Assembly: GCA_040218735.1 (NCBI GenBank)
Contig: JAVJQW010000038.1
Span: 224,001-288,000, forward strand
Direction: 5' to 3'
DNA from: Deltaproteobacteria bacterium
GTDB taxonomy: Bacteria > Myxococcota > Kuafuiibacteriia > Kuafuiibacteriales > Kuafuiibacteriaceae
DNA: 64,000 nucleotides
Part shown: positions 12,958 to 23,507 of the stretch, one piece after another
Layout of the letters: every line of letters begins with the position of its first letter
Numbering within the stretch: position 1 is the stretch's first letter
Made by a program: the position numbers and the translations under genes
The notes under the pieces: generated by a model
Seen by the model: the letters and a program-made list of their open reading frames with translations, nothing else
What the model was told of the DNA's origin: nothing
The model's database searches: none

Positions 12958-14732
12958 GCGCGTTCCTCCCGGTCGTCGTCCTCGGGCTCGTCACCGCACC
13001 GGTGGCGTCCGAGCGGTGGCGTCCGCCCGAGCTCGTCGTGAAGGCGCCGCCGCCGATCACCGAGTTCGAAGCGCTGGAGGAGATCGCGCTGTCATACCTC
13101 GGGCGCCCCTACGTGATGGGGGGCGTCGGGAGCCCGGGCTTCGACTGCTCGGGGTTCGTGTGCCGCGTGTACGCGGAGTCGGGTTACGCGATCCCGCGGG
13201 TGTCGCGCGACCAGGCGAAGGCGGGGGAGAAGGTGCCGCTCGACGCCATCGCGCCCGGCGACCTGGTGTTCTTCGCGGAGAAGGGGCGGCCGATCTCCCA
13301 CGTCGGGCTGTACCTCGGCGACGGCGAGCTGGCGCACGCGTCCACCGGGCAGGGGCGGGTGGTCGTCGCGCGGATGTCGGCGCGGTGGTTCTCGGATCGC
13401 TTCGTGGAGGCGCGTCGCATCCTGACGAGCACGACGGGGGAACCTTGGGACCCTTCGCAGAGTCCAACTCCGTACGTGGCCCCGACGGAGGAGCTGGTGG
13501 AGCACCGCGGCGACACGCTGCTGCTGCCGATGTTGCGTCGCCCGGCGCGGGTGCCGGCGCCGCGCTACGGGCCCGATCTGATCGGGGCGGACGTCACGTC
13601 GGTGGCGGTGCGGAGCGCGTTCGTCGGCGAGGACGGCGAGCTCGCGTTCACGTTGACGCCGGAGGCGACGCTCACGTTCGAGTCGATCGCGTTGCGTGCG
13701 TCGGTTGCGGTGCCGGTGCGCTTCCCGTTCGACGCGCGGCCCACGGTCGGGACGTTCGACGGCTTCGGCGACTACACCCGGTTCCTCCGGCACCTGTCGC
13801 TCGGCGTCGAGGACGCCGACCTCGAGCTGGTGCTGTCGCGCTTCTCGGAGCTGTCGCTGTTGTCCGGCTTCGTGATGGACCAGGTGGTGCCGTCCACCGA
13901 GGTGCGCGCGGTGCCGGGGTTCGCGGTGCAGCGGACGCCGCTGTCGTTCTTCGGGCGGGCGCGTTCGTCGTGGTTCGAGGCGGAGGCGACGATCGACGAC
14001 GTGATCGACCCCGCGATCTTCGGCGGTGGGGTGCGGGTGCCGATTCAGCTCGCGCCGATCGCGTTGGGCGCCGCGGTCGCGACGGACCAGCGCGCGCGGG
14101 TGACGTCGGGGCTTCGGGCGATCACGACGGCGGAGGCGCAGCTGTTGGGGCAGCTCGTCGACACGCGGGAGTGGACGCTCGACGCGCACCTCGACGTCGG
14201 TGTGATGGGCGCGCTCGACGACTCGGGGTTCGGGACGACGTTCAGCCTCGAGGGTGAGCGACGTTTCTACGGTGCGACCTCGGTGACCTTGGAGCTGGAG
14301 GCGGGCTACGCCGGGTCGCACTTCGTGCCGGGGTTGTTCGGGCCGACGTACGCGCACGAGCGTCGCGCGCACCTGGAGGCGATGGACGCGACGGTGGGCC
14401 GGCCGACGCTCGGCGGGCGGACGGCGGTGCGGTTCGGGAAGCTCGCCATGGAGGTCGGCTACGGGCAGAGCATCGGGGCGAACCGCGCGGCGATCGACCG
14501 GCGTCTGCAGGTCGTGTTGGAGGCGCAGTCCTTGTCGTTGTTCGGAACGCGGTTGTTGGATCTGCGCGTCGCGTATGCGTCGCGCGCGCCGTTCGGCGAC
14601 GAGCCGACGCTCGACATGTTGCAGGGCGGAGCGCGGCTGAGGCTGTTCAGCTGGCTGTTCGCGGAGGCCTACGCGCAGAAGGGTCGCGCGTTCGAAGCCG
14701 GCGCGGGGGTGACGGTGGCGTGGCTCCCCTGA
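12954..14732 (+). CDS. NlpC/P60 (C40) peptidase fused to a probable beta-barrel domain
   Basis: YLGRPYVMGG...GFDCSGFV, PGDLVFF, HVGLYLG, HAS. C-terminal amphipathic beta strands ending AGVTVAWLP. GTG start coupled to the upstream stop. Confidence 0.8.
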   Translation: MSAFLPVVVLGLVTAPVASERWRPPELVVKAPPPITEFEALEEIALSYLGRPYVMGGVGSPGFDCSGFVCRVYAESGYAIPRVSRDQAKAGEKVPLDAIAPGDLVFFAEKGRPISHVGLYLGDGELAHASTGQGRVVVARMSARWFSDRFVEARRILTSTTGEPWDPSQSPTPYVAPTEELVEHRGDTLLLPMLRRPARVPAPRYGPDLIGADVTSVAVRSAFVGEDGELAFTLTPEATLTFESIALRASVAVPVRFPFDARPTVGTFDGFGDYTRFLRHLSLGVEDADLELVLSRFSELSLLSGFVMDQVVPSTEVRAVPGFAVQRTPLSFFGRARSSWFEAEATIDDVIDPAIFGGGVRVPIQLAPIALGAAVATDQRARVTSGLRAITTAEAQLLGQLVDTREWTLDAHLDVGVMGALDDSGFGTTFSLEGERRFYGATSVTLELEAGYAGSHFVPGLFGPTYAHERRAHLEAMDATVGRPTLGGRTAVRFGKLAMEVGYGQSIGANRAAIDRRLQVVLEAQSLSLFGTRLLDLRVAYASRAPFGDEPTLDMLQGGARLRLFSWLFAEAYAQKGRAFEAGAGVTVAWLP

Positions 14733-14767
14733 CGCGAAGTCGAACGAGATGTGGCAGAGTCGGCGCG

Positions 14768-15655
14768 ATGCGTTGGCTGCTCCTGCTCTTGGTCGCTCTG
14801 TCGTTTGCTTGCGAGGGCAAGCTCGACAAGGAGCGTTTCCGTCGTCGCGCGGAGAAGGCGTACATCGAGGTCAACTCGGGTTGGACGATCATCAAGCGCG
14901 ACCTGCACGAGACGATCTTCGTGCGCGGCGATCAGGTCGACACACTCGACGTCCAGACGATGTTCGAGGACTACGAGAAGAGCGGTCAGAAGGGGTCGGA
15001 CTATTTCGAGGCCTGGATGGCGGAGCGCAAGGCGGAGGCCGAGGCGCGCCGGCGAACGCTGGAGCAGGCCAAGTCGGAGGTCATCCCGATCATCAAGAGC
15101 GAGAAGTGGATTCGGGTGCAGGACCTCGGGGCGATCGGACCGGAGCGCATCCGCGACCAGATTCGCCCATGGCGGCAGGAGGTCGCGCCCGACGTCTTCG
15201 CGGTCCTCGGCATCCCCGAGGAGAAGCTCGGCTATCGCTTCGCCTCGATCGAAGAGGTGAAGGCGTCGAAGGTCTCGGACGACGCGTGGATGAAGATCGG
15301 CATGGAGAACGTCCGCCGCATCGTCGGTGAGCCGACCGGCCAAGAGATGCGCATGGAGGACAAACTGAAGGTCTTCGACCTGAAGAACGTCGACGGCGTC
15401 TCCGCGCTGCTGCTGGACCCGCGCTTCCGCGCGAACATGCTCGAGAAGTTCTCGCTGTCAGAGCTGGGCGCGGCGGTGCCGATCCGCAACGTGCTGATCG
15501 TGTTCGACCCGGCGGACTTCACCACGATCAAACCCATCCGCGCGCGCGCGCGGCAGCTGTATGACTCGCAGAACCACCCGGGGTTCAGGGGGTTGTTGAG
15601 GTTCGATAAGAACGTGGTGACGGTGCTGGACTCGGGGGAGGACAAGAAGAAGTAG
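14768..15655 (+). CDS. hypothetical lipoprotein (possibly DUF1444-like)
   Basis: Lipobox LSFAC; [12 protein letters not shown] motif; strongly coding codon bias. Confidence 0.7.
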
Positions 15656-15662
15656 AGGGGAT

Positions 15663-15916
15663 CGGATTCGGACACGGACTCGGATTCGGTTTACGGACAC
15701 GGATTCGGTTACGGACACGGATTCGGACACGGATTCGGTTACGGACACGGATTCGGTTACGGACACGGATTCGGACACGGACACGGACACGGATTCGGAC
15801 ACGGACACGGATTCGGACACGGACACGGATTCGGTTGCGGACTCGGATTCGGATTCGGACACGGACTCGGATTCGGCTACGGACTCGGATTCGGTTACGG
15901 ACTCGGATTCGGAATC
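15663..15916. repeat. (CGGNNN)n hexamer tandem array, about 42 units
   Basis: Units CGGATT/CGGACA/CGGACT/CGGTTA with one 1-nt slip; intergenic. Confidence 0.95.
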
Positions 15917-15950
15917 TGCTGGCGGCGCCCCTCGCGGAGCGCCGCCGGCA
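15917..15950 (-). other. GCGA-tetraloop hairpin 3' of the left four-helix-bundle gene
   Basis: Minus strand reads TGCCGGCGGCGCTCC-GCGA-GGGGCGCCGCCAGCA, a 15-bp stem with one mismatch and one G-U pair. Confidence 0.85.
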
Positions 15951-15960
15951 TGACCTTCGC

Positions 15961-16314
15961 CTAATGCGTCAGCCGATACAGCATCGCGTTAATCCTATCG
16001 ATGAGCTCCATGCTCACCGCGGCGTCCTCCGCCTTCACGTACCCCCAGGCCACCGCCACGCGCAGCGCGCAACGCACTTCGTCCGCGCTGCCCGCAGCCA
16101 CCGTGTAGTGATATGTCCTCGACCCGCCCTCCCGTCGACGCCCCTCACCGAGATTCAGCGCCACCGAGCTCGCGGCGTCCCGAATCTGCTTCGCCAAGCT
16201 CGCGTCCTTCTTTCGGATCTTGCTCACCACGTCGACGAGTTCCTCGATGAGCTCCACGCTCACCTCCAGAACGATGAACCGACCAGGAGAGGCTGCATTG
16301 TTTTTTCTGTTCAT
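15961..16314 (-). CDS. four-helix bundle protein (23S rRNA IVP / Avd-like family)
   Basis: LAKQIRDAASSVALNLGEG...AGSADE...AWGY matches the family motif QxRRAxxSIxxNIAEG...GSxxE; GGAGG RBS. Confidence 0.9.
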   Translation of the reverse strand: MNRKNNAASPGRFIVLEVSVELIEELVDVVSKIRKKDASLAKQIRDAASSVALNLGEGRRREGGSRTYHYTVAAGSADEVRCALRVAVAWGYVKAEDAAVSMELIDRINAMLYRLTH

Positions 16315-16426
16315 ACCTCCCCCCGGCGCAGGCGGCGTGACGAACGGCCCTCCCTTCGTTCGGTTACTTTGAGTGGAATCTATTCGGTGGCTCGGTCGTG
16401 GTGGGGAATCGGAACCATAGGCCGAT

Positions 16427-16441
16427 CGGCACGACGGTTGC
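16427..16441 (+). promoter_or_regulatory. putative sigma54 -24/-12 promoter
   Basis: CGGCACG-ACGG-TTGC with exact GG-N10-GC spacing; predicted +1 near 16453. Confidence 0.7.
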
Positions 16442-16455
16442 GCTGCACATAAGGG

Positions 16456-16479
16456 ATGAACAGAAAAAACAATGCAGCC
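16456..16479 (+). repeat. inverted copy of the first 24 nt of gene 15961-16314
   Basis: ATGAACAGAAAAAACAATGCAGCC is the 24/24 reverse complement of 16291-16314. Confidence 0.95.
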
Positions 16480-16616
16480 GTCGGCCGGTAGCTCGGTGTG
16501 TGCACCTCAACCAAGAAGACGGAGAGAGAGTCCTCCCCTTCAATCCTGCAGAAGAAAGAACCTCTCCCGTCAAAGTGCCTTAGGGAGTTGAAACCATCCC
16601 CAGTACCACGACCCCC

Positions 16617-16640
16617 GGCCGAGTCCTTGGTTGGGTTCAC
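16617..16640 (-). repeat. inverted copy of the first 24 nt of gene 16716-17063
   Basis: Minus strand GTGAACCCAACCAAGGACTCGGCC versus gene ATGAACCCAACCAAGAACTCGACC, 21/24. Confidence 0.92.
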
Positions 16641-16654
16641 ACCCTTTGAGCAGC

Positions 16655-16670
16655 GCAACGGACGCGCCAA
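16655..16670 (-). promoter_or_regulatory. putative sigma54 -24/-12 promoter
   Basis: Minus strand TTGGCGCG-TCCG-TTGC with exact GG-N10-GC spacing; predicted +1 near 16643. Confidence 0.7.
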
Positions 16671-16715
16671 GGCCCGCAGACGGTCCTTGTCACGCCCCCT
16701 GCGCTGAAGGGGGGC

Positions 16716-17063
16716 ATGAACCCAACCAAGAACTCGACCTACCGCTTCGTGGCGCTCGACGTGGCGCTGGAGATGATTCGTCAGCTCCGAGAGCCGCTTG
16801 CGAAGATTCGAAAGCACGATGCGGATTTGGCGAAGCAGATTCGGAAGGCGGCGGCGTCGGTGCCGTTGAACGTCGCGGAGGGGAGCCGGCGCGCGGGGGG
16901 CGATAGAGCGTATGCGTTCCGAGTTGCGCTCGGGAGCGCCGACGAAGTGCGCGCGGCGTTGCTGTGCGCGGATGCGTGGGGGTACGCGGAGGTGGACGAG
17001 GAGCTACTGGCGACGCTGGATCGCTTGATGGGGCTCATCTGGGGGCTCGGCGGTAGGCGGTAG
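16716..17063 (+). CDS. four-helix bundle protein (23S rRNA IVP / Avd-like family)
   Basis: LAKQIRKAAASVPLNVAEG...GSADE...AWGY; clear paralog of the left gene. Confidence 0.9.
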   Translation: MNPTKNSTYRFVALDVALEMIRQLREPLAKIRKHDADLAKQIRKAAASVPLNVAEGSRRAGGDRAYAFRVALGSADEVRAALLCADAWGYAEVDEELLATLDRLMGLIWGLGGRR

Positions 17064-17065
17064 AG

Positions 17066-17107
17066 GAGGAGGCTCGGCGCCGTCGCGAGGCGGCGCCGAG
17101 CCTCTTC
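17066..17107 (+). other. GCGA-tetraloop hairpin 3' of the right four-helix-bundle gene
   Basis: GAGGAGGCTCGGCGCCGTC-GCGA-GGCGGCGCCGAGCCTCTTC, a 19-bp stem with two G-U pairs. Confidence 0.9.
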
Positions 17108-17117
17108 GATCGCGACT

Positions 17118-17285
17118 CGGAAACGGAGACGGACTCGGATTCGGACTCGGACTCGGACTCGGACTCGGATTCGGATTCGGACTCGGATTCGGACTCGGAT
17201 TCGGATTCGGAATCGGACGCGGAATCGGAATCGGAATCGGAATCGGAATCGGAATCGGAATCGGATTCGGTAACGGATTCGGACT
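17118..17285. repeat. (CGGNNN)n hexamer tandem array, about 28 units
   Basis: Units CGGACT/CGGATT/CGGAAT; ends in hairpin GGATTCGGAC-ttggt-GTCCGAATCC (17275-17299). Confidence 0.95.
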
Positions 17286-17299
17286 TGGTGTCCGAATCC

Positions 17300-17962
17300 C
17301 TACGAATCGATCTCCTCGCGCGCCCGCGCATCCAACAACGCGTTCAACCCCCGCGAGATCTGCTGCGGCTCGTACGTCCCCCGCGGCACGCACCGCCGAT
17401 ACACGTCACCGTTCGTCGCCGCCGTCACGGCGTCGCGGATCTCGTCGAGGGGCTCGACCACCAGCGAGTCCAGTCGTCGGGAGAAGAACACGAACACCAC
17501 GAACGCGATCAGGCCGACGGCGGCGGCGGACCAGGCGCCGGCGAGGCCGAGGCGTTGGGCTTCGGTGTCCTGTTCGCGCATGGAGCGGCGGTTGATGCCG
17601 GAGAGGGCGACGATGGCGTCGACGACGCGGCCGCGGACGGCGCGGTCGTTGGGGCGCTCGAACATCGTCTTGGCGTCGCGTTCGATCGCTTCGAGGTAGG
17701 GGCGCTCCTCCTCCTCCGTGACGTTGTTCTTGGCGCGCTCGAGCGCGCCGTCGAACTGCGTACGCCCCTCCTTGTCGAACGACTCCGTCGCGATCACCGT
17801 CAGCATCTCCTCCGCCGCGCGGATGCTGTACTCGTTCTCCGCGAGGATGCGCTCGATCGCCGGGGACATGCGGGCGAGGAGGGCGATGCCCGTGAAGACG
17901 CCCGCGAGCTGGAACACGAAGAGCGTCCCGACCGCCGCGCGGATCTCGCGGCGGACCGTCAT
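17300..17962 (-). CDS. two-TM sensor-like protein (periplasmic helical domain + HAMP-like region), no output domain
   Basis: TM, ILAENEYSIRAAEEM, NNVTEEEE, TM, VVEPLDEI...GDVYRR. Start overlaps the trkA stop. Confidence 0.7.
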   Translation of the reverse strand: MTVRREIRAAVGTLFVFQLAGVFTGIALLARMSPAIERILAENEYSIRAAEEMLTVIATESFDKEGRTQFDGALERAKNNVTEEEERPYLEAIERDAKTMFERPNDRAVRGRVVDAIVALSGINRRSMREQDTEAQRLGLAGAWSAAAVGLIAFVVFVFFSRRLDSLVVEPLDEIRDAVTAATNGDVYRRCVPRGTYEPQQISRGLNALLDARAREEIDS

Positions 17963-18627
17963 GACAGCTTGCTCGCGAGGTCGGTCGCGTCGTTCGCGGC
18001 GGTCGCGACGACCAGCACGTCGGACGAGGACAGCGGGGTGTTCGCGTCCGGCAGGACGGCTTGCACCGCTCCGTCGATCTTGCGGCGCACCGCCACCACC
18101 GTCACGCCGAGCTTCGCGGGCAGGTTCGCCTCGCGCAGCGACTTGCCGGCGAGGGAGTCGGGGACCTGGAGCTCCGTGATGACCAGGTTCCCGCCGAGCG
18201 GGATCTGGTCCACGACGTTCGAGTGCGCGAGCCGCGCCGCGAGCCGCTCGCCGAAGGCGCGCTCCGGGTTCACGACCTCGTGCGCGCCGACGAGGCGGAG
18301 GATGCGTTCGTGGATGGTGTCGTTGGCGCGGGCGACGATCCGCTTCGCGCCCATCTGCCGAAGGAGGGCCGTCACTACGATCGAGCCGTCGCGTGACTCG
18401 TCGCCGATCGCCACGACGCACAGGTCGCGCTCCGCGGGCTGCGTGCGGGCGAGGGCGGCCTCGTCGGCTGCGTCGAAGGCGACGGCCTCCGCGGCCCACG
18501 TCGAGGCTTGCTGCACGAGCCGGTCGTCCTGGTCGACGACCATCACCTCGACGCCGTGCTGCGCGAGCGCCCGTGCGGTCGACATGCCGAACTGGCCGAG
18601 ACCCAGGATGAGTGCCTGTGTCTTCAC
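17959..18627 (-). CDS. trkA: Trk/Ktr K+ uptake regulatory subunit (RCK)
   Basis: GLGQFG Rossmann motif, VVNPE, and C-terminal TrkA_C (GKSLREANL...VTVVAVRR). Confidence 0.9.
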   Translation of the reverse strand: MKTQALILGLGQFGMSTARALAQHGVEVMVVDQDDRLVQQASTWAAEAVAFDAADEAALARTQPAERDLCVVAIGDESRDGSIVVTALLRQMGAKRIVARANDTIHERILRLVGAHEVVNPERAFGERLAARLAHSNVVDQIPLGGNLVITELQVPDSLAGKSLREANLPAKLGVTVVAVRRKIDGAVQAVLPDANTPLSSSDVLVVATAANDATDLASKLS

Positions 18628-21314: not shown

Positions 21315-21871
21315 TGGCCCAGGATGTTCACGTCGATGAGTAGCCGGATCGTAGTGCGGATGGTGATCGCGACCCCGCGCGGCTCGGCGAGGTTCACGGT
21401 GGCGCTCACCGTCATCGCCTCGGCGGTCGCGTAGGGTTTGAGGTTGAAGTCCGTCGGGACCTCCAGCTCCGTCGAGCTCGTCATCGGGACGGGGAGCGGG
21501 AGCTCCGCGAGCATCGCCTCGGGTTGACCCGTCGCGGTGACCTTCATCGTCATGCTCTCGACGTAGAGGTTGAGCTCCTCGAGGCGGGCGTCGCCGCTCT
21601 GGTGCTCGACCTCCAGGGTCACGGACTTCACGTAGATCGCGTCGACGTCGTCGGGCGAGATCCCCTCGTCGGCGAAGGTCCCCGACCGTGACAGGTCGAT
21701 GTTCGAGAAGCCGGCGCCGAACGACGGCGCGTAGGGCCCGGTGATGCCGGTGTCCGAGCGGGGGATCGAGGCTTCCTCGACGATCACCTCTTCGAACTCG
21801 TCCAGCCCGCCGCACGCCGCGAGCGTGAGCGCCGCGCTGGCCAGTAGGTGTCTTCGAAGCACGGCCCGCAT
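21311..21871 (-). CDS. hypothetical lipoprotein
   Basis: Lipobox TLAAC; beta-rich acidic body. Confidence 0.7.
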   Translation of the reverse strand: MRAVLRRHLLASAALTLAACGGLDEFEEVIVEEASIPRSDTGITGPYAPSFGAGFSNIDLSRSGTFADEGISPDDVDAIYVKSVTLEVEHQSGDARLEELNLYVESMTMKVTATGQPEAMLAELPLPVPMTSSTELEVPTDFNLKPYATAEAMTVSATVNLAEPRGVAITIRTTIRLLIDVNILGQ

Positions 21872-21920
21872 CCTACCCGGGAGTGTTGGCCCCGTGCTAC
21901 ATGATCGCGCTGAACGCCCG

Positions 21921-23507
21921 ATGATCTTCCACTGTCCCGCCTGCTCGGCCGGGCACACGGTGCCGGTCTCGATGATCCCGAACGGCGGGATGGACATGAC
22001 CTGCCGCCGCTGCTCCGCGTCGTTCCTGGTCGACGTCGACGAGCCCGCGGTCGTCGAGGAGGAGGATCCGACGGTCGCCGCCAAGGCCGAAGCGACCGCG
22101 ATCGGGGTCGCGAACCCCTACGACGAGCTCGTCCCCGACGCCCAGCTGATCCGCCCCGGCGGCGAGCTGCTCGACCTGGACGACTCCTCCGACGACACCG
22201 AGGCCCTCGTCGCGGCCGAAGACCGCGCCCGCTCCGCCGACAAACCGACGATCCCGATCGACCACAAGCGTGTTCCGCTGGGCCCGGACGAGGTGGGCGT
22301 CGACCCGGAGATCGACAACACCCAGCGCTTCGACGTCGAGGAGGAGGACGTTCCGACCTACGAGCCGGACGTCATCGGGATGCAGGACATCGATGGCGGC
22401 GGCCTCGGCACCTCACGTCCCCCGAGCCGCCGCGCGCCGACCCCGGAGCCGCGCAAGCTGGGCGGCAGCAAACCGCCGCCCTCGTCGTCGACGACCCGGC
22501 CTCCGTTCGACCGTGACGATCTCTACGCCAAGGTCGCCTCCGGCCGCTACGAAAAGCCCGAAGCCCCACCGGAGCCGGCCTCCAACGTCCCGCGCGAACG
22601 CGCTTGGAACGAACCCTCGTCGCTGATCTTCACCGGCGCCGGATCCGACTCCGCGCTGCGACGCTTCGCCGAGTGGCTCAACCGCGCCCCGTTGCCGCTG
22701 AAGGTCGCGTTGATCGTGTTCCCGGTGACGCTGGGCCTGACGCTGGTGCTCACGGCGGGGCCGAAGCGGGGGGAGCCGGTGGACGTGGGGGCCGTGGGTT
22801 CAGTGGATTCTACTCAAACGAGCCCCAGCGAGGTTCCCGGTCCGGGTCCCGGTCCGGGTCCCGAAGCGGGCACGGGTTCGGGATCGGGCAAGGGCTCGGG
22901 CTCGGACTCGGACACGGGATCGGATTCGGACTCGGATTCGGACACGGGATCGGATTCGGGATCGGATTCGGACTCGGACTCCGGGTCGGATTCGGACACC
23001 GACGCGGACGCCGTCGCTCGTTCGCGTTCGGGACCCGGACCGGAACCGGGACCCGGACCGGGTGCCCTGCGCTTCCGCGACCCCACGGCGGCTGAGGGCC
23101 AAGCCTACATCCAAGCCCCCAACACCCGCCTCCGCGCCACCGCGGCGCCGCGCGGTCGCACCGTCGCGCGGCTCGGCGCCGGACAGCTGGTCCAGCGCTA
23201 CGATCGGCGCGGCGAGTTTGCGTTGGTGTTGGTCGCGCCGGACGGTCCGGTCGGGTTCGTCGACGAGGGGCGCCTCGGGGCGCGAAAGCCGGTCGTGGCG
23301 CTCGCCGAGGACATCGCGTTCGAGGGGTGCTCTTCGACCGGGAGCACGCTGGACGCATGCCTGTTCGCGGCGAAGCAGAAGGAGGGCGCGTGCGTCGACG
23401 GCTGTGGTGCCGACGGTGCGCGCTGTCGCGAAGCCTGTCAGATCGCGTTCGAGCGCTGCACGCGCCAGTGCCAGCCGCCGAAGCGTCGGCGGCGTCGGCG
23501 GCGTTGA
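21921..23507 (+). CDS. zinc-ribbon (MJ0042-type) membrane protein with SH3-like and Cys-rich C-terminus
   Basis: MIFHCPAC...CRRC, acidic/Pro linker, one TM, RLRATAAPRGRTVARL...GFV, and multiple C-terminal Cys. Confidence 0.8.
   Translation: MIFHCPACSAGHTVPVSMIPNGGMDMTCRRCSASFLVDVDEPAVVEEEDPTVAAKAEATAIGVANPYDELVPDAQLIRPGGELLDLDDSSDDTEALVAAEDRARSADKPTIPIDHKRVPLGPDEVGVDPEIDNTQRFDVEEEDVPTYEPDVIGMQDIDGGGLGTSRPPSRRAPTPEPRKLGGSKPPPSSSTTRPPFDRDDLYAKVASGRYEKPEAPPEPASNVPRERAWNEPSSLIFTGAGSDSALRRFAEWLNRAPLPLKVALIVFPVTLGLTLVLTAGPKRGEPVDVGAVGSVDSTQTSPSEVPGPGPGPGPEAGTGSGSGKGSGSDSDTGSDSDSDSDTGSDSGSDSDSDSGSDSDTDADAVARSRSGPGPEPGPGPGALRFRDPTAAEGQAYIQAPNTRLRATAAPRGRTVARLGAGQLVQRYDRRGEFALVLVAPDGPVGFVDEGRLGARKPVVALAEDIAFEGCSSTGSTLDACLFAAKQKEGACVDGCGADGARCREACQIAFERCTRQCQPPKRRRRRRR
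22836..23062. repeat. in-frame hexamer tract bounded by inverted repeats
   Basis: CGGATT/CGGACT/CGGACA/CGGGAT units. 22836-22865 and 23027-23062 are reverse complements apart from one extra hexamer. Confidence 0.85.

Follow-up and report, generated by a model that had tools for sequence, protein, structure and literature searches.

A Duplicative Cassette of Two PF05635 Genes in a Myxococcotal Genome, Each Gene Headed by a Conserved Long Palindrome

The twin-gene cassette and its insertion

The window analyzed here, a stretch of 64,000 nucleotides from a contig of a Deltaproteobacteria bacterium, contains a block in which two small genes, A and B, are transcribed divergently between a pair of hexamer arrays (Table 1). 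Both products belong to the four-helix-bundle family PF05635/TIGR02436, with PF05635 scores of 56.9 bits for A and 47.4 bits for B (cut-off 33.8) and TIGR02436 scores of 56.3 and 51.5 (cut-off 24). They are paralogues, as an initial annotation made from the sequence had proposed, and share about 50% identity. Their closest solved relative, reached with a profile built from the proteins, is PDB 2gsc (E 8e-16); a PADLOC search with A and B matched neither. Twins have arisen several times in the gene tree, sometimes as recent sister copies, and with such a tree we do not claim A and B as an obligate heteromer.

Table 1. Features of the inserted block, in positions of the window
Feature	Position	Strand	Evidence or remark
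Whole inserted block (array, twin cassette, array)	15656-17299	.	Empty site in G001
Left hexamer array, about 42 CGGNNN units	15659-15913	+	Tandem Repeats Finder
3' GC-rich hairpin after gene A, GCGA loop, terminator-like, no T-run	15917-15950	-	-32.5 kcal/mol, z -5.7
Gene A, 117-aa four-helix-bundle protein (PF05635/TIGR02436)	15961-16314	-	ORF and profile matches
Palindrome A	16287-16483	-	Inverted-repeat search; folding -86.1 kcal/mol (z -6.4 vs shuffles); covariance model 83.1 bits
Palindrome A, 3' arm (start codon and 8 codons)	16291-16318		Pairs with 16452-16479
Palindrome A, G-run	16319-16325		
Palindrome A, gene-facing box GTCACG-N4-CTGCGC	16326-16341		
Palindrome A, long apical part	between gene-facing and outward boxes		
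Palindrome A, outward box	16427-16442	+	
Palindrome A, 5' arm	16452-16479		Pairs with 16291-16318
Central spacer between palindromes, no assigned feature	16480-16616	.	Kept among three genome copies
Palindrome B	16613-16743	+	Inverted-repeat search; folding -73.4 kcal/mol (z -7.9 vs shuffles); covariance model 89.7 bits
Palindrome B, 5' arm	16617-16644		Pairs with 16712-16739
Palindrome B, outward box	16654-16669	-	
Palindrome B, apical stem-loop	between outward and gene-facing boxes		
Palindrome B, gene-facing box GTCACG-N4-CTGCGC	16689-16704		G-run next
Palindrome B, 3' arm (start codon and 8 codons)	16712-16739		Pairs with 16617-16644
Gene B, 115-aa four-helix-bundle protein (PF05635/TIGR02436)	16716-17063	+	ORF and profile matches
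3' GC-rich hairpin after gene B, GCGA loop, terminator-like	17066-17107	+	-43.7 kcal/mol, z -7.0
Right hexamer array, TCGGAN units	17117-17299 (Tandem Repeats Finder to 17283)	+	

The block exactly fills the interval that separates the stop codons of a convergent gene pair, and its core is richer in AT than the farther flanks (GC 0.58-0.60 versus 0.69-0.73); both features had been noted at the outset. In G001, a genome of the same genus, the site is empty: the stop codons of the two convergent flanking genes are separated by 4 bp, and no array is present. The cassette itself measures 1.2 kb and is present in three copies in this genome, 92-94% identical, whose similarity ends at the 3' hairpins and not at the palindromes; similar arrays flank the other two copies. 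The region is a duplicative cassette of two paralogous PF05635 genes, inserted with its flanking arrays into the 4-bp gap, and the three copies together with the empty site in the congener bear out the early suggestion of a mobile element. For one copy the probable location is between rbfA and truB, a pair of genes that are neighbors in 11/11 relatives; the join of contigs C70 and C43 is drawn from the gene order of those relatives. Contig ends that fall inside the cassette (C13, C43, C33, C70) were rejected as biological ends, since the 140 nt that they share would be explained by an assembly break with k=141 in a repeat.

When 61 relatives were searched for the cassette at the DNA level, only short pieces at chance level were returned outside this genome, and a search of the genome contigs for related loci gave three loci, none new. 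In one genus, two species share orthologous twin loci that are stable between them. No transposase was found within the block by ORF and Pfam analysis, and the two direct neighbor genes have no Pfam match. The block ends in low-complexity arrays, in which terminal repeats or a target-site duplication are not readable. Contigs of four public DNA runs contain one array-to-array joint, from 15874 to 17132, in two of the runs and with a shorter side of 30 nt; it was not counted as an empty site and may stem from a solo array elsewhere.

Each gene is followed by the GCGA-loop hairpin that had been described, and both fold well beyond shuffled expectation (Table 1). A T-run terminator rule applied to 15600-17350 gave only four weak sites, inside the spacer. 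The initial annotation had also assigned a CGGNNN array to each module. Arrays do lie on both sides, but both read CGGNNN on the plus strand and are direct, unmirrored repeats. By a loose CGGNNN rule hexamer arrays occur at about 49 places, one of them within a 588-aa ORF as a Gly/Asp-Ser linker, and G194 has at least 10 solo arrays. Found also solo and as coding low-complexity linkers, the arrays were rejected as a module-specific part; they are a separate dispersed repeat class. They stand at cassette borders in 14/27 cases upstream and 9/28 downstream, versus 11/248 background windows. The last ~14 nt of the right array flip orientation just ahead of the neighbor's stop codon.

A covarying hairpin at the gene start

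Ahead of each gene the initial annotation had listed an inverted copy of the gene's own first 24 nt, an outward-facing sigma54 motif, a spacer, and GTCACG-N4-CTGCGC before the ATG. All of these are present. The arms extend to 28 nt and are 96% complementary in palindrome A and 86% in B; 24-nt arms reproduce the spacers of 141 nt (A) and 75 nt (B); and a G-run follows GTCACG-N4-CTGCGC before both ATGs. What did not hold is the independence of these parts, which are the two halves of a single long imperfect palindrome. Its basal stem is the first 24-28 nt of coding sequence paired with the upstream copy, and within the hairpin GTCACG-N4-CTGCGC pairs with the “outward sigma54 motif.” The design exceeds chance, as judged by the z values of the two folds and by the recurrence of the same layout, with different sequences, in dozens of relatives.

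The family was delineated by scanning metagenome contigs with the motif pattern, a distance of 8-18 nt being allowed between CTGC and ATG. Among the 80 matches listed, 54 are true hairpins: 43 of the 54 are followed by a PF05635-like ORF, and the other 11 carry the upstream half. At the PF05635-associated loci the first 24 nt recur in inverted form with at least 19/24 matches in 31/43 cases and with at least 15/24 in 41/43, lying 37-89 nt ahead of the motif, while direct and reversed controls mostly gave 10-16 of 24 matches, with one at 18. Both halves occur in 42/44 distinct hairpins, and where both are present the N4 spacers are complementary at 4/4 positions in 25 hairpins and at 3/4 in 15. 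The distance from CTGC to ATG is 12-13 nt in 36/42.

Many uncultured bacteria have the palindrome ahead of PF05635 genes, as do several Myxococcota; it occurs in 17/401 Myxococcota genomes. A covariance model identifies six hairpins in this genome, seven in G015, six in G194 and eight in G197, a genome with four twin cassettes. All six strong matches in this genome lie within the three cassettes; one weak 28-bit match lies elsewhere, and the covariance model search of the genome found no solo hairpins. Homologues elsewhere have both motifs as well as the inverted copy of the start, and in relatives the locus is not a fixed one. These observations uphold the proposed self-contained module of gene and non-coding parts, whose design is conserved in relatives. 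The module is confined to a subfamily of PF05635 genes, being present at 3/12 homologous loci in the same family. Rfam 15 gave no bacterial family at E up to 5 and no rRNA in 15500-17500, and none at E up to 0.1 at seven other hairpin loci, except one tRNA elsewhere in L081. The architecture had been thought undescribed, and a full-text literature search found no description of it or of the palindrome; supplements may list further IVP contexts.

The imperfect palindrome, 120-190 nt in length, is always located directly at the gene start. At its base is a sequence-variable, Watson-Crick-perfect stem in which the translation start region pairs with an inverted copy of itself. Above this stem is a G-rich internal loop, and then a conserved stem, GCGCAC-N4-CGYGCC paired with GTCAYG-N4-CTGCGC, in which two pyrimidine-pyrimidine mismatches are invariant and lie one helical turn apart; the tip is variable. 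RNAalifold applied to 32 sequences returns a single 35-pair hairpin, in which 27 pairs show compensatory double changes. The palindrome is thus a conserved, portable 5' module with full covariation. The basal stem is of the ATG type here and in the metagenome set, contains the SD in G194 and G231, and in one G015 type leaves the SD just outside. It is 5'UTR in other Myxococcota, so a coding nature is not required. A reduced variant in G010 keeps only the outward half between the arms.

G-U pairs are nearly absent from the family: one-sided changes number 0-2 per pair in the RNAalifold alignment, and among 641 Watson-Crick pairs there are 4 G-T versus 17 C-A or A-C. Neither strand is consistently favored. 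The antisense strand of hairpin B in this window is 22 kcal/mol more stable than the gene-sense strand; family-wide the bias is weak, with the antisense strand more stable in 28/44 hairpins, and a claim of antisense-strand structure was dropped.

Orientation relative to the gene is fixed, in 54/54 true hairpins of the metagenome set and in all covariance-model matches, and the model scores 83-90 bits on the gene-sense strand versus 30-35 bits on the reverse. This regularity weighs heavily on the early idea of an invertible switch, considered here as a promoter switch in which the 28-bp inverted repeats would flank a flipping segment and exchange a dead box for a live sigma54 box. Inverted repeats do flank opposed promoter-like boxes, and inversion would put a consensus box 10-12 nt before the coding sequence. 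The gene, however, is never on the far side, and all three genome copies have the same polarity. The flipped start would read AGG in 10/42 hairpins, and neither direct neighbor has a Pfam match. In contigs of the four public runs the sequence stays collinear through the two arms and no joint changes strand, although contigs can miss rare forms; no flipped form was found among nine family homologues without the motif or among the 37 remaining pattern matches. Invertibility is highly improbable and close to refuted.

Candidate functions of the palindrome

The same palindrome heads unrelated DUF559 genes in L081 (94.5 bits) and L128 (90.3 bits), and no PF05635 gene was found beside these genes. 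The palindrome is therefore independent of its cargo, being joined to two unrelated gene families, and the initial notion of a protein acting with its own RNA is weakened because DUF559 genes share the element. The same finding tells against that notion in the form of an autoregulatory operator, in which the four-helix-bundle protein, an Avd relative, would bind its own palindrome as RNA or as a DNA cruciform and so control its own synthesis. Such a role would be in keeping with the fold family, which includes Avd, a protein that binds RNA and reverse transcriptase (accessible text of PMC10053308), with the association of the hairpin with PF05635 genes in 43/54 cases, and with the resemblance of a conserved stem with fixed mismatches to a protein-recognition feature. 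Since 9/12 PF05635 loci in the same family are without the palindrome, an operator of this kind seems improbable.

The sigma54 consensus is GG-N10-GC in a context like TGGCAC-N5-TTGC, and sigma54 requires the GG. Both outward boxes of the locus depart from this consensus by 2 mismatches and are two of only five places within 2 mismatches in the window; at up to 3 mismatches, 46 matches were found versus 76 expected, so that no enrichment is seen. The upstream half of the palindrome, when read on the opposite strand, is a good -24/-12 box of sigma54 type directed away from the gene. The family consensus of this outward half is yTGGC(G/A)(C/T)G-N4-GTGCGC. The sigma54-like motif stands as a GG-N10-GC box, but as one that is also the hairpin partner of the gene-facing box. 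The latter has GT in place of the GG required by sigma54, which makes its promoter role doubtful. A scan of 15600-17350 gave no sigma70-like promoter.

It is conceivable that the outward boxes form part of a signal-gated antisense switch. RNA from an outward promoter of sigma54 type, complementary to the 5' arm of incoming messages, would free the buried start or trigger its processing, and the gene would be expressed only when an enhancer-binding protein fires. The genome has an rpoN gene, the outward half fits the sigma54 GG and GC in 42/42 hairpins (partly by construction of the pattern), the two boxes here are among the best matches of the window, a pseudo-start lies 10 nt from the GC in 21/42 hairpins, and the G010 variant retains just the outward half. 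The pseudo-start triplet is unconserved, however (ATG 13, GTG 11, AGG 10, others 8; n=42), in the window the consensus is matched no more often than by chance when up to 3 mismatches are allowed, and pairing with the other half would give the same conservation. We regard the antisense switch as decidedly unlikely.

The reading that we favor, tentatively and at somewhat less than an even chance, is that the palindrome is a portable promoter and translation-start module that would insulate a selfish small gene from outside transcription. Transcripts entering from outside would carry both arms and fold back, burying the start region in a stem of at least 24 bp; they would not be translated, and the stem would also be a likely RNase III substrate. 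Productive mRNA would start inside the palindrome at the gene-facing box, and a message of the type seen here would be leaderless or nearly so, because the ATG follows the -12-like GC by 12-13 nt. From the outward box, transcription would leave the module and run into the partner gene and farther in the divergent twin, and into the flanks in single or convergent forms. Near-perfect complementarity could be maintained by template-switch correction within the palindrome, with selection holding a few invariant asymmetries. Speaking for this reading are the conserved architecture with its covariation, the independence from cargo, the place of the start region in or beside the basal stem, the spacing from CTGC to ATG, the evidence for insertion, and the rpoN gene of this genome. 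Fold-back inhibition in IS10 may be counted as a precedent. So may the rRNA intervening sequences (IVS) with the same protein family, for in Coxiella the 28-bp terminal stem is cut by RNase III (accessible text of PMC4990558).

Several features of the family fit insulation less comfortably. The near absence of G-U pairs and of a strand preference is not what selection on a single RNA strand usually leaves behind, and it fits a structure at the DNA level equally well or better. Not every member buries its start region, as the G015 type with its SD outside the stem makes plain, and fold-back alone leaves the invariant conserved stem with its two mismatches unexplained. In the divergent twin, moreover, a message started at the outward box of the partner would include the inhibitory hairpin in full, which counts against insulation.

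The main rival explanation is that the palindrome is a cis site for folded-DNA recombination, resembling attC or the ends of IS200/IS605. One strand would fold, the mismatches would indicate strand and register, and gene and hairpin would be moved together by a trans-acting enzyme; the arrays would be landing pads or would supply homology for ectopic gene conversion. Conservation of structure over stem sequence, with the two invariant mismatches, would be expected of such a site, as would Watson-Crick-only covariation without RNA strand bias. It would also account for a hairpin that heads two unrelated cargo families in fixed orientation, for a cassette that is inserted and multi-copy, and for the enrichment of arrays at cassette borders; in convergent twins elsewhere the hairpins lie at the outer ends, adjoining arrays. 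In this genome, by contrast, the hairpins are in mid-unit, the similarity of the copies stops at the 3' hairpins, and solo hairpins are lacking. Further points against this explanation are that the block holds no transposase and its neighbors have no Pfam match, that the RNAalifold alignment has no attC-like conserved core at the base of the stem, that twin loci are stable between two congeneric species, and that the empty site in G001 has no array. On balance a recombination site is rather unlikely. A broader proposal, which we consider unlikely, is that of a new class of mobile gene cassette, in which a folded-DNA site (hairpin or cruciform) with strand-marking mismatches would move small cargo (Avd-like bundles, DUF559 nuclease-fold proteins, perhaps others) into or between dispersed hexamer arrays, as well as into operons and rRNA genes, with the four-helix-bundle protein as its nucleic-acid-binding factor.

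Relation to known elements and significance

The nearest known relatives of the cassette are the 23S rRNA IVS of the S23p/IVP type (Coxiella, Leptospira), which encode the same family, PF05635, in small, selfish-looking insertions with a near-perfect stem of ~28 bp; in the accessible literature a mobile-element origin is already suspected for them. The cassette differs in being flanked by protein-coding genes, with no rRNA in the Rfam scan, rather than inserted in an rRNA helix. Its arms enclose only the 5' leader and the ORF lies outside the stem, in contrast to the ORF-enclosing stem of IVS. It adds a conserved inner stem with -24/-12-like boxes, the twin arrangement and the flanking hexamer arrays. 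A second relationship is to Avd of the diversity-generating retroelements, which has the same four-helix-bundle fold (accessible text of PMC10053308). No reverse transcriptase is near the cassettes, however: the genome has five RVT_1 genes, none on contigs C66, C13, C33, C43 or C70. An inverted-repeat search of 15600-17350 and a tandem-repeat scan revealed no TR/VR-like pair.

Other likenesses concern the palindrome. IS10 and IS50 likewise have an inverted copy of the start region upstream, in a mobile element with opposed inward and outward promoter-like sites. The cassette cargo is no transposase, though, and the palindrome is far longer and Watson-Crick perfect, with boxes that are sigma54-like as read from sequence. 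Integron attC sites resemble it in that small ORFs are each accompanied by an imperfect palindrome in which structure is conserved over stem sequence and certain positions are always unpaired. In the cassette, by contrast, the hairpin is 5'-terminal and extends over the start codon, at most two genes occur together and no cassette array is formed; the stem base has no R'/R'' core sites, and the basal stem columns are sequence-variable. Correia, ERIC and REPIN elements, which are MITE-like palindromic repeats with promoters or RNase III sites, are also imperfect palindromes of 100-150 nt, intergenic and often between convergent genes. The present palindrome is found only attached to genes, its copy number is that of the genes, and this genome has no solo copies.

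The IVP proteins of PF05635 are among the commonest small proteins that lack an assigned role, and they have been suspected to be selfish since their discovery. To our knowledge no cis-acting element had been tied to them. Accounts in the accessible literature place them inside 23S and 16S rRNA insertions, in cas operons and beside retroelements. The palindrome provides a concrete, searchable non-coding partner of PF05635 genes, documented by its covariation, its sharing with DUF559 genes and the evidence for insertion. It makes the open role of the IVP proteins testable and gives annotators a model with which to find such cassettes. If the sigma54-like boxes are true promoters, the cassette would be a rare mobile element that carries sigma54-dependent control. 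If the mobile-cassette class is real, it would offer a mechanism for the stand-alone IVP family and for the origin of ORF-bearing rRNA intervening sequences.

The twin-gene block and its upstream palindromes

Two convergent genes of the window are separated by a block of 1644 bp, which reaches from one stop codon to the other. It carries two divergently transcribed genes, A (117 codons) and B (115 codons), whose products are both four-helix-bundle proteins of PF05635/TIGR02436 and share about 50% identity; the nearest solved structure is that of pentameric XCC0516 (2gsc, E 8e-16). All of the elements listed in the initial annotation were found: an inverted copy, upstream of each gene, of its first 24–28 coding nt (28-nt matches, 96% complementary for one gene and 86% for the other), a gene-facing box, GTCACG-N4-CTGCGC, with a G-run ahead of both ATGs, a GG-N10-GC box that adjoins each inverted copy and faces away from the gene, a GC-rich hairpin with a GCGA loop 3' of both stop codons, hexamer arrays closing both sides of the block, and an AT-richer core (58–60% G+C versus 69–73% farther out). 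The arrays had been described as a mirrored part of each module, but both run CGGNNN on the + strand and are thus direct repeats, not mirror images.

Coordinates of the features in the window and at other loci
Feature	Sequence	Position	Strand
Left flanking gene	window	14720-15655	+
Cassette core	window	15917-17107	
Gene A	window	15961-16314	-
11-codon ORF in the inverted start copy of gene A	window	16455-16490	+
Gene B	window	16716-17063	+
Right flanking gene	window	17300-18499	-
588-codon ORF	window	21741-23507	+
Third hexamer array, within that ORF	window	22867-23009	
Solo head-to-head array	G000 (genome of the window), contig C66	162090-162560	
Solo head-to-head array	G000, contig C43	37558-37836	
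tRNA gene	locus L081	1170-1243	-
Orthologous twin locus	G194, contig C4	152180-155130	

Every part of the proposed five-part architecture is present, but the upstream parts are not independent, since alignment of relatives merges them into a single long imperfect hairpin. In its basal stem the start region is paired with its own inverted copy; above this an internal loop contains the G-run, a sequence-conserved stem pairs GCGCAC-N4-CGYGCC with GTCAYG-N4-CTGCGC, and the tip is a variable apical stem-loop. The outward sigma54 motif exists as described, but it is the opposite-strand reading of the palindrome's upstream half (outward consensus yTGGC(G/A)(C/T)G-N4-GTGCGC). Two invariant positions distinguish the halves (GG versus GT, GTGC versus CTGC) and form C-T and C-C mismatches in the hairpin about one helical turn apart. 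In 25 of 42 hairpins the N4 spacers of the halves are complementary at 4/4 positions, and in 15 at 3/4.

Folded computationally as RNA, hairpin B reaches -73.4 kcal/mol (z -7.9) and hairpin A -86.1 kcal/mol (z -6.4). RNAalifold of 32 sequences yields 35 pairs, 27 with double compensatory changes. Because start sequences vary among members, the inverted start copies amount to large-scale covariation. In gene A, the inverted start copy opens a short ORF (ATG...TAG) directly after the outward sigma54-like box, and the copy in gene B opens with GTG. Family-wide, only 24 of 42 hairpins have ATG or GTG as the triplet opening the inverted copy, so that a conserved peptide is unlikely.

Distribution, cargo and insertion

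Scanning metagenome contigs for the gene-facing motif followed by a G-run and ATG gave at least 80 loci. Among the 80 matches listed, 43 lie ahead of a PF05635-like ORF (about 112–118 codons), 11 more have an upstream palindrome half, with ORFs cut by contig ends, decayed, or of another family, and the remaining 26 are chance matches. An inverted copy of the ORF's own first 24 nt, at 19 or more of 24 matches, occurs at 31 of the 43 listed PF05635 loci; at 15 or more it occurs at 41, and it always precedes the motif by 37–89 nt. For control copies, direct or reversed, most scores are 10–16 matches, with one at 18. The motif is present in 17 of 401 sampled Myxococcota genomes, where the reversed control pattern has 3 matches in total. 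A covariance model built from the palindrome alignment found six hairpins in G000, seven in G015 (same family, other genus), six in G194 and eight in G197 (both of another family, f14), and none in G010; scores are 83–90 bits on the gene strand versus 30–35 on the reverse strand. Among PF05635 loci of the window's own family, 3 of the 12 examined show long inverted repeats at their starts; the palindrome is confined to a subfamily of PF05635 genes. Rfam has no match for it at this cassette or at seven other loci.

The basal stem has a non-coding 3' arm in family f14 and in some of the G015 palindromes: there the arm is 5'UTR, and beyond it comes the real start with a canonical SD. This SD lies inside the stem base in G194 and G231 and just outside the stem in one G015 type. 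Since the arm is untranslated there, the 8–10 N-terminal residues that the stem encodes in the window are an add-on, the conserved unit being the palindrome. G010 has a reduced variant, missed by the covariance model, in which 26-nt arms surround a 39-nt loop holding only the upstream-type half, SD and ATG. It heads two nearly identical PF05635 genes (L039 and L044), at least one with a hexamer-like array directly upstream. DUF559 (PF04480) genes at L081 and L128 are likewise headed by the complete palindrome, each with an anti-start arm that matches its own start, and remnants occur at L097, L101 and L133. The module is thus portable between unrelated small genes, and such cargo under the same palindrome weakens the earlier idea of a private protein–RNA pair. 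At L081 a tRNA gene (Rfam, 64.6 bits) lies about 150 bp downstream of the DUF559 cassette.

The 1.2-kb core is present in three copies in G000, at 92–94% identity. The other two are split across four contig starts (first 400–900 bases of C13, C43, C33 and C70, with about 140 nt shared), which looks like a repeat-induced assembly break; we infer only from relatives' gene order that C70 pairs with C43 and C33 with C13. In the same-genus relative G001 (75% complete) the flanking-gene orthologues are convergent, with 4 bp between stop codons and neither array nor cassette; no protein B homologue was found there. Another G000 copy has rbfA beside it on one contig and truB on another, the contig join being inferred; these genes are adjacent in 11 of 11 family relatives examined (0–104 nt between aligned ends). 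The three copies, the empty site and the lack of fixation in relatives bear out the insertion part of the mobile-element claim: the cassette is an insertion.

G197 has four twin cassettes of 1.03–1.08 kb, 85–89% identical to one another. Two are at positions orthologous to occupied G194 sites, so that insertions can be old and stable. At one such locus (L241 of G197 and contig C4 of G194), one genome is without about 133 nt, equal to one whole palindrome, and two alignment pieces meet at a single point, which suggests precise loss. At the other (L255 versus G194 contig C13), the flank is 96% identical and the cassette only 79%.

Twin arrangement and hexamer arrays

In G194 and G197 the genes of a twin converge and the palindromes lie outermost; this is so at all five motif loci first examined and for each of the eight G197 hairpins. 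Among the 43 metagenome members, at least 8 have another PF05635 ORF close by, 7 of these convergent. In a tree of 38 domains, twin partners group as young sister copies in some lineages and belong to old, distinct types in others, and same-type copies of one genome cluster together; pairing has therefore arisen repeatedly, the pair then multiplying as a unit.

Within 250 bp, 14 of 27 members have a short-period array upstream of the palindrome and 9 of 28 have one downstream of the stop, against 11 of 248 same-contig background windows, the members not being independent; most of these arrays have a period of 6 or a multiple of 6. All three G000 cassettes and all five f14 twins have arrays on both sides. 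That the arrays are private to the cassette is ruled out by about 49 of them in G000 under a loose rule, by solo arrays dispersed in G194 and by a third array of the same unit type in the window, which encodes an in-frame Gly/Asp-Ser low-complexity linker; in G000 the repeat thus exists as coding and non-coding DNA. The arrays might serve as landing pads or provide homology for ectopic conversion, or they might be a by-product. Two solo head-to-head arrays outside the window switch strand mid-array and have no linked cassette; that on C66 has GGGGATCGG-like ends, inverted relative to each other, on its two sides. Between rbfA and truB of G012 (L226), the rbfA 3' end has four GAATCC units in its acidic tail, a short coding hexamer array exactly where G000 has array and cassette.

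Possible role of the palindrome

An invertible switch, as had been suggested, is unlikely, because the palindrome keeps one orientation in all 54 true hairpins among the matches listed and in every covariance-model hit, and public contigs are collinear across both arms. A DGR is excluded, as no reverse transcriptase lies near any cassette. Arm changes are almost all double Watson–Crick swaps; among 641 pairs, G-T mismatches (4) are outnumbered by C-A or A-C mismatches (17), half of the arm mismatches involve the A or T of ATG, and neither strand is consistently more stable (28/44). This pattern is unusual for a selected RNA and points to a palindrome at the DNA level. Alternatively, continual correction of the arms by template switching, a known mutational process, would hide an RNA role in the substitution pattern.

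A recombination site formed by folded DNA would be one use for a DNA-level palindrome, though we think it improbable. A role in expression is favored by other features. The translation start invariably lies within the palindrome or directly next to it. Window-type palindromes have no properly spaced SD, and in 36 of 42 hairpins the ATG follows a -12-like GC by 12–13 nt; this is how a -24/-12 promoter predicted to yield a leaderless message would be laid out. Sigma54, which G000 encodes, needs a G where the gene-facing box has T; the outward box matches its consensus. We lean, with real doubt, toward a portable promoter and translation-start unit, which would bury the start region in any transcript entering from outside and would emit transcription outward. 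IS10 follows the same logic, silencing outside transcripts at the start and transcribing outward.

The nearest described relatives, encoding the same protein family, are ORF-bearing 23S rRNA intervening sequences. RNase III cuts their 28-bp stem, and they have long been suspected of being mobile (PMC4990558). IVP genes occur within cas operons (PMC3936711) and CPR rRNA insertions (bioRxiv 10.1101/2024.02.27.582315), and IVP proteins are relatives of Avd (PMC10053308). In keeping with the initial annotation, which knew of no account of the architecture, a search of the accessible full texts found no description of the start-embedding palindrome or its conserved boxes, of DUF559 sharing, or of twin cassettes. 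The cassette would belong with small selfish IVP insertions, among which its well-defined cis element appears to be new.
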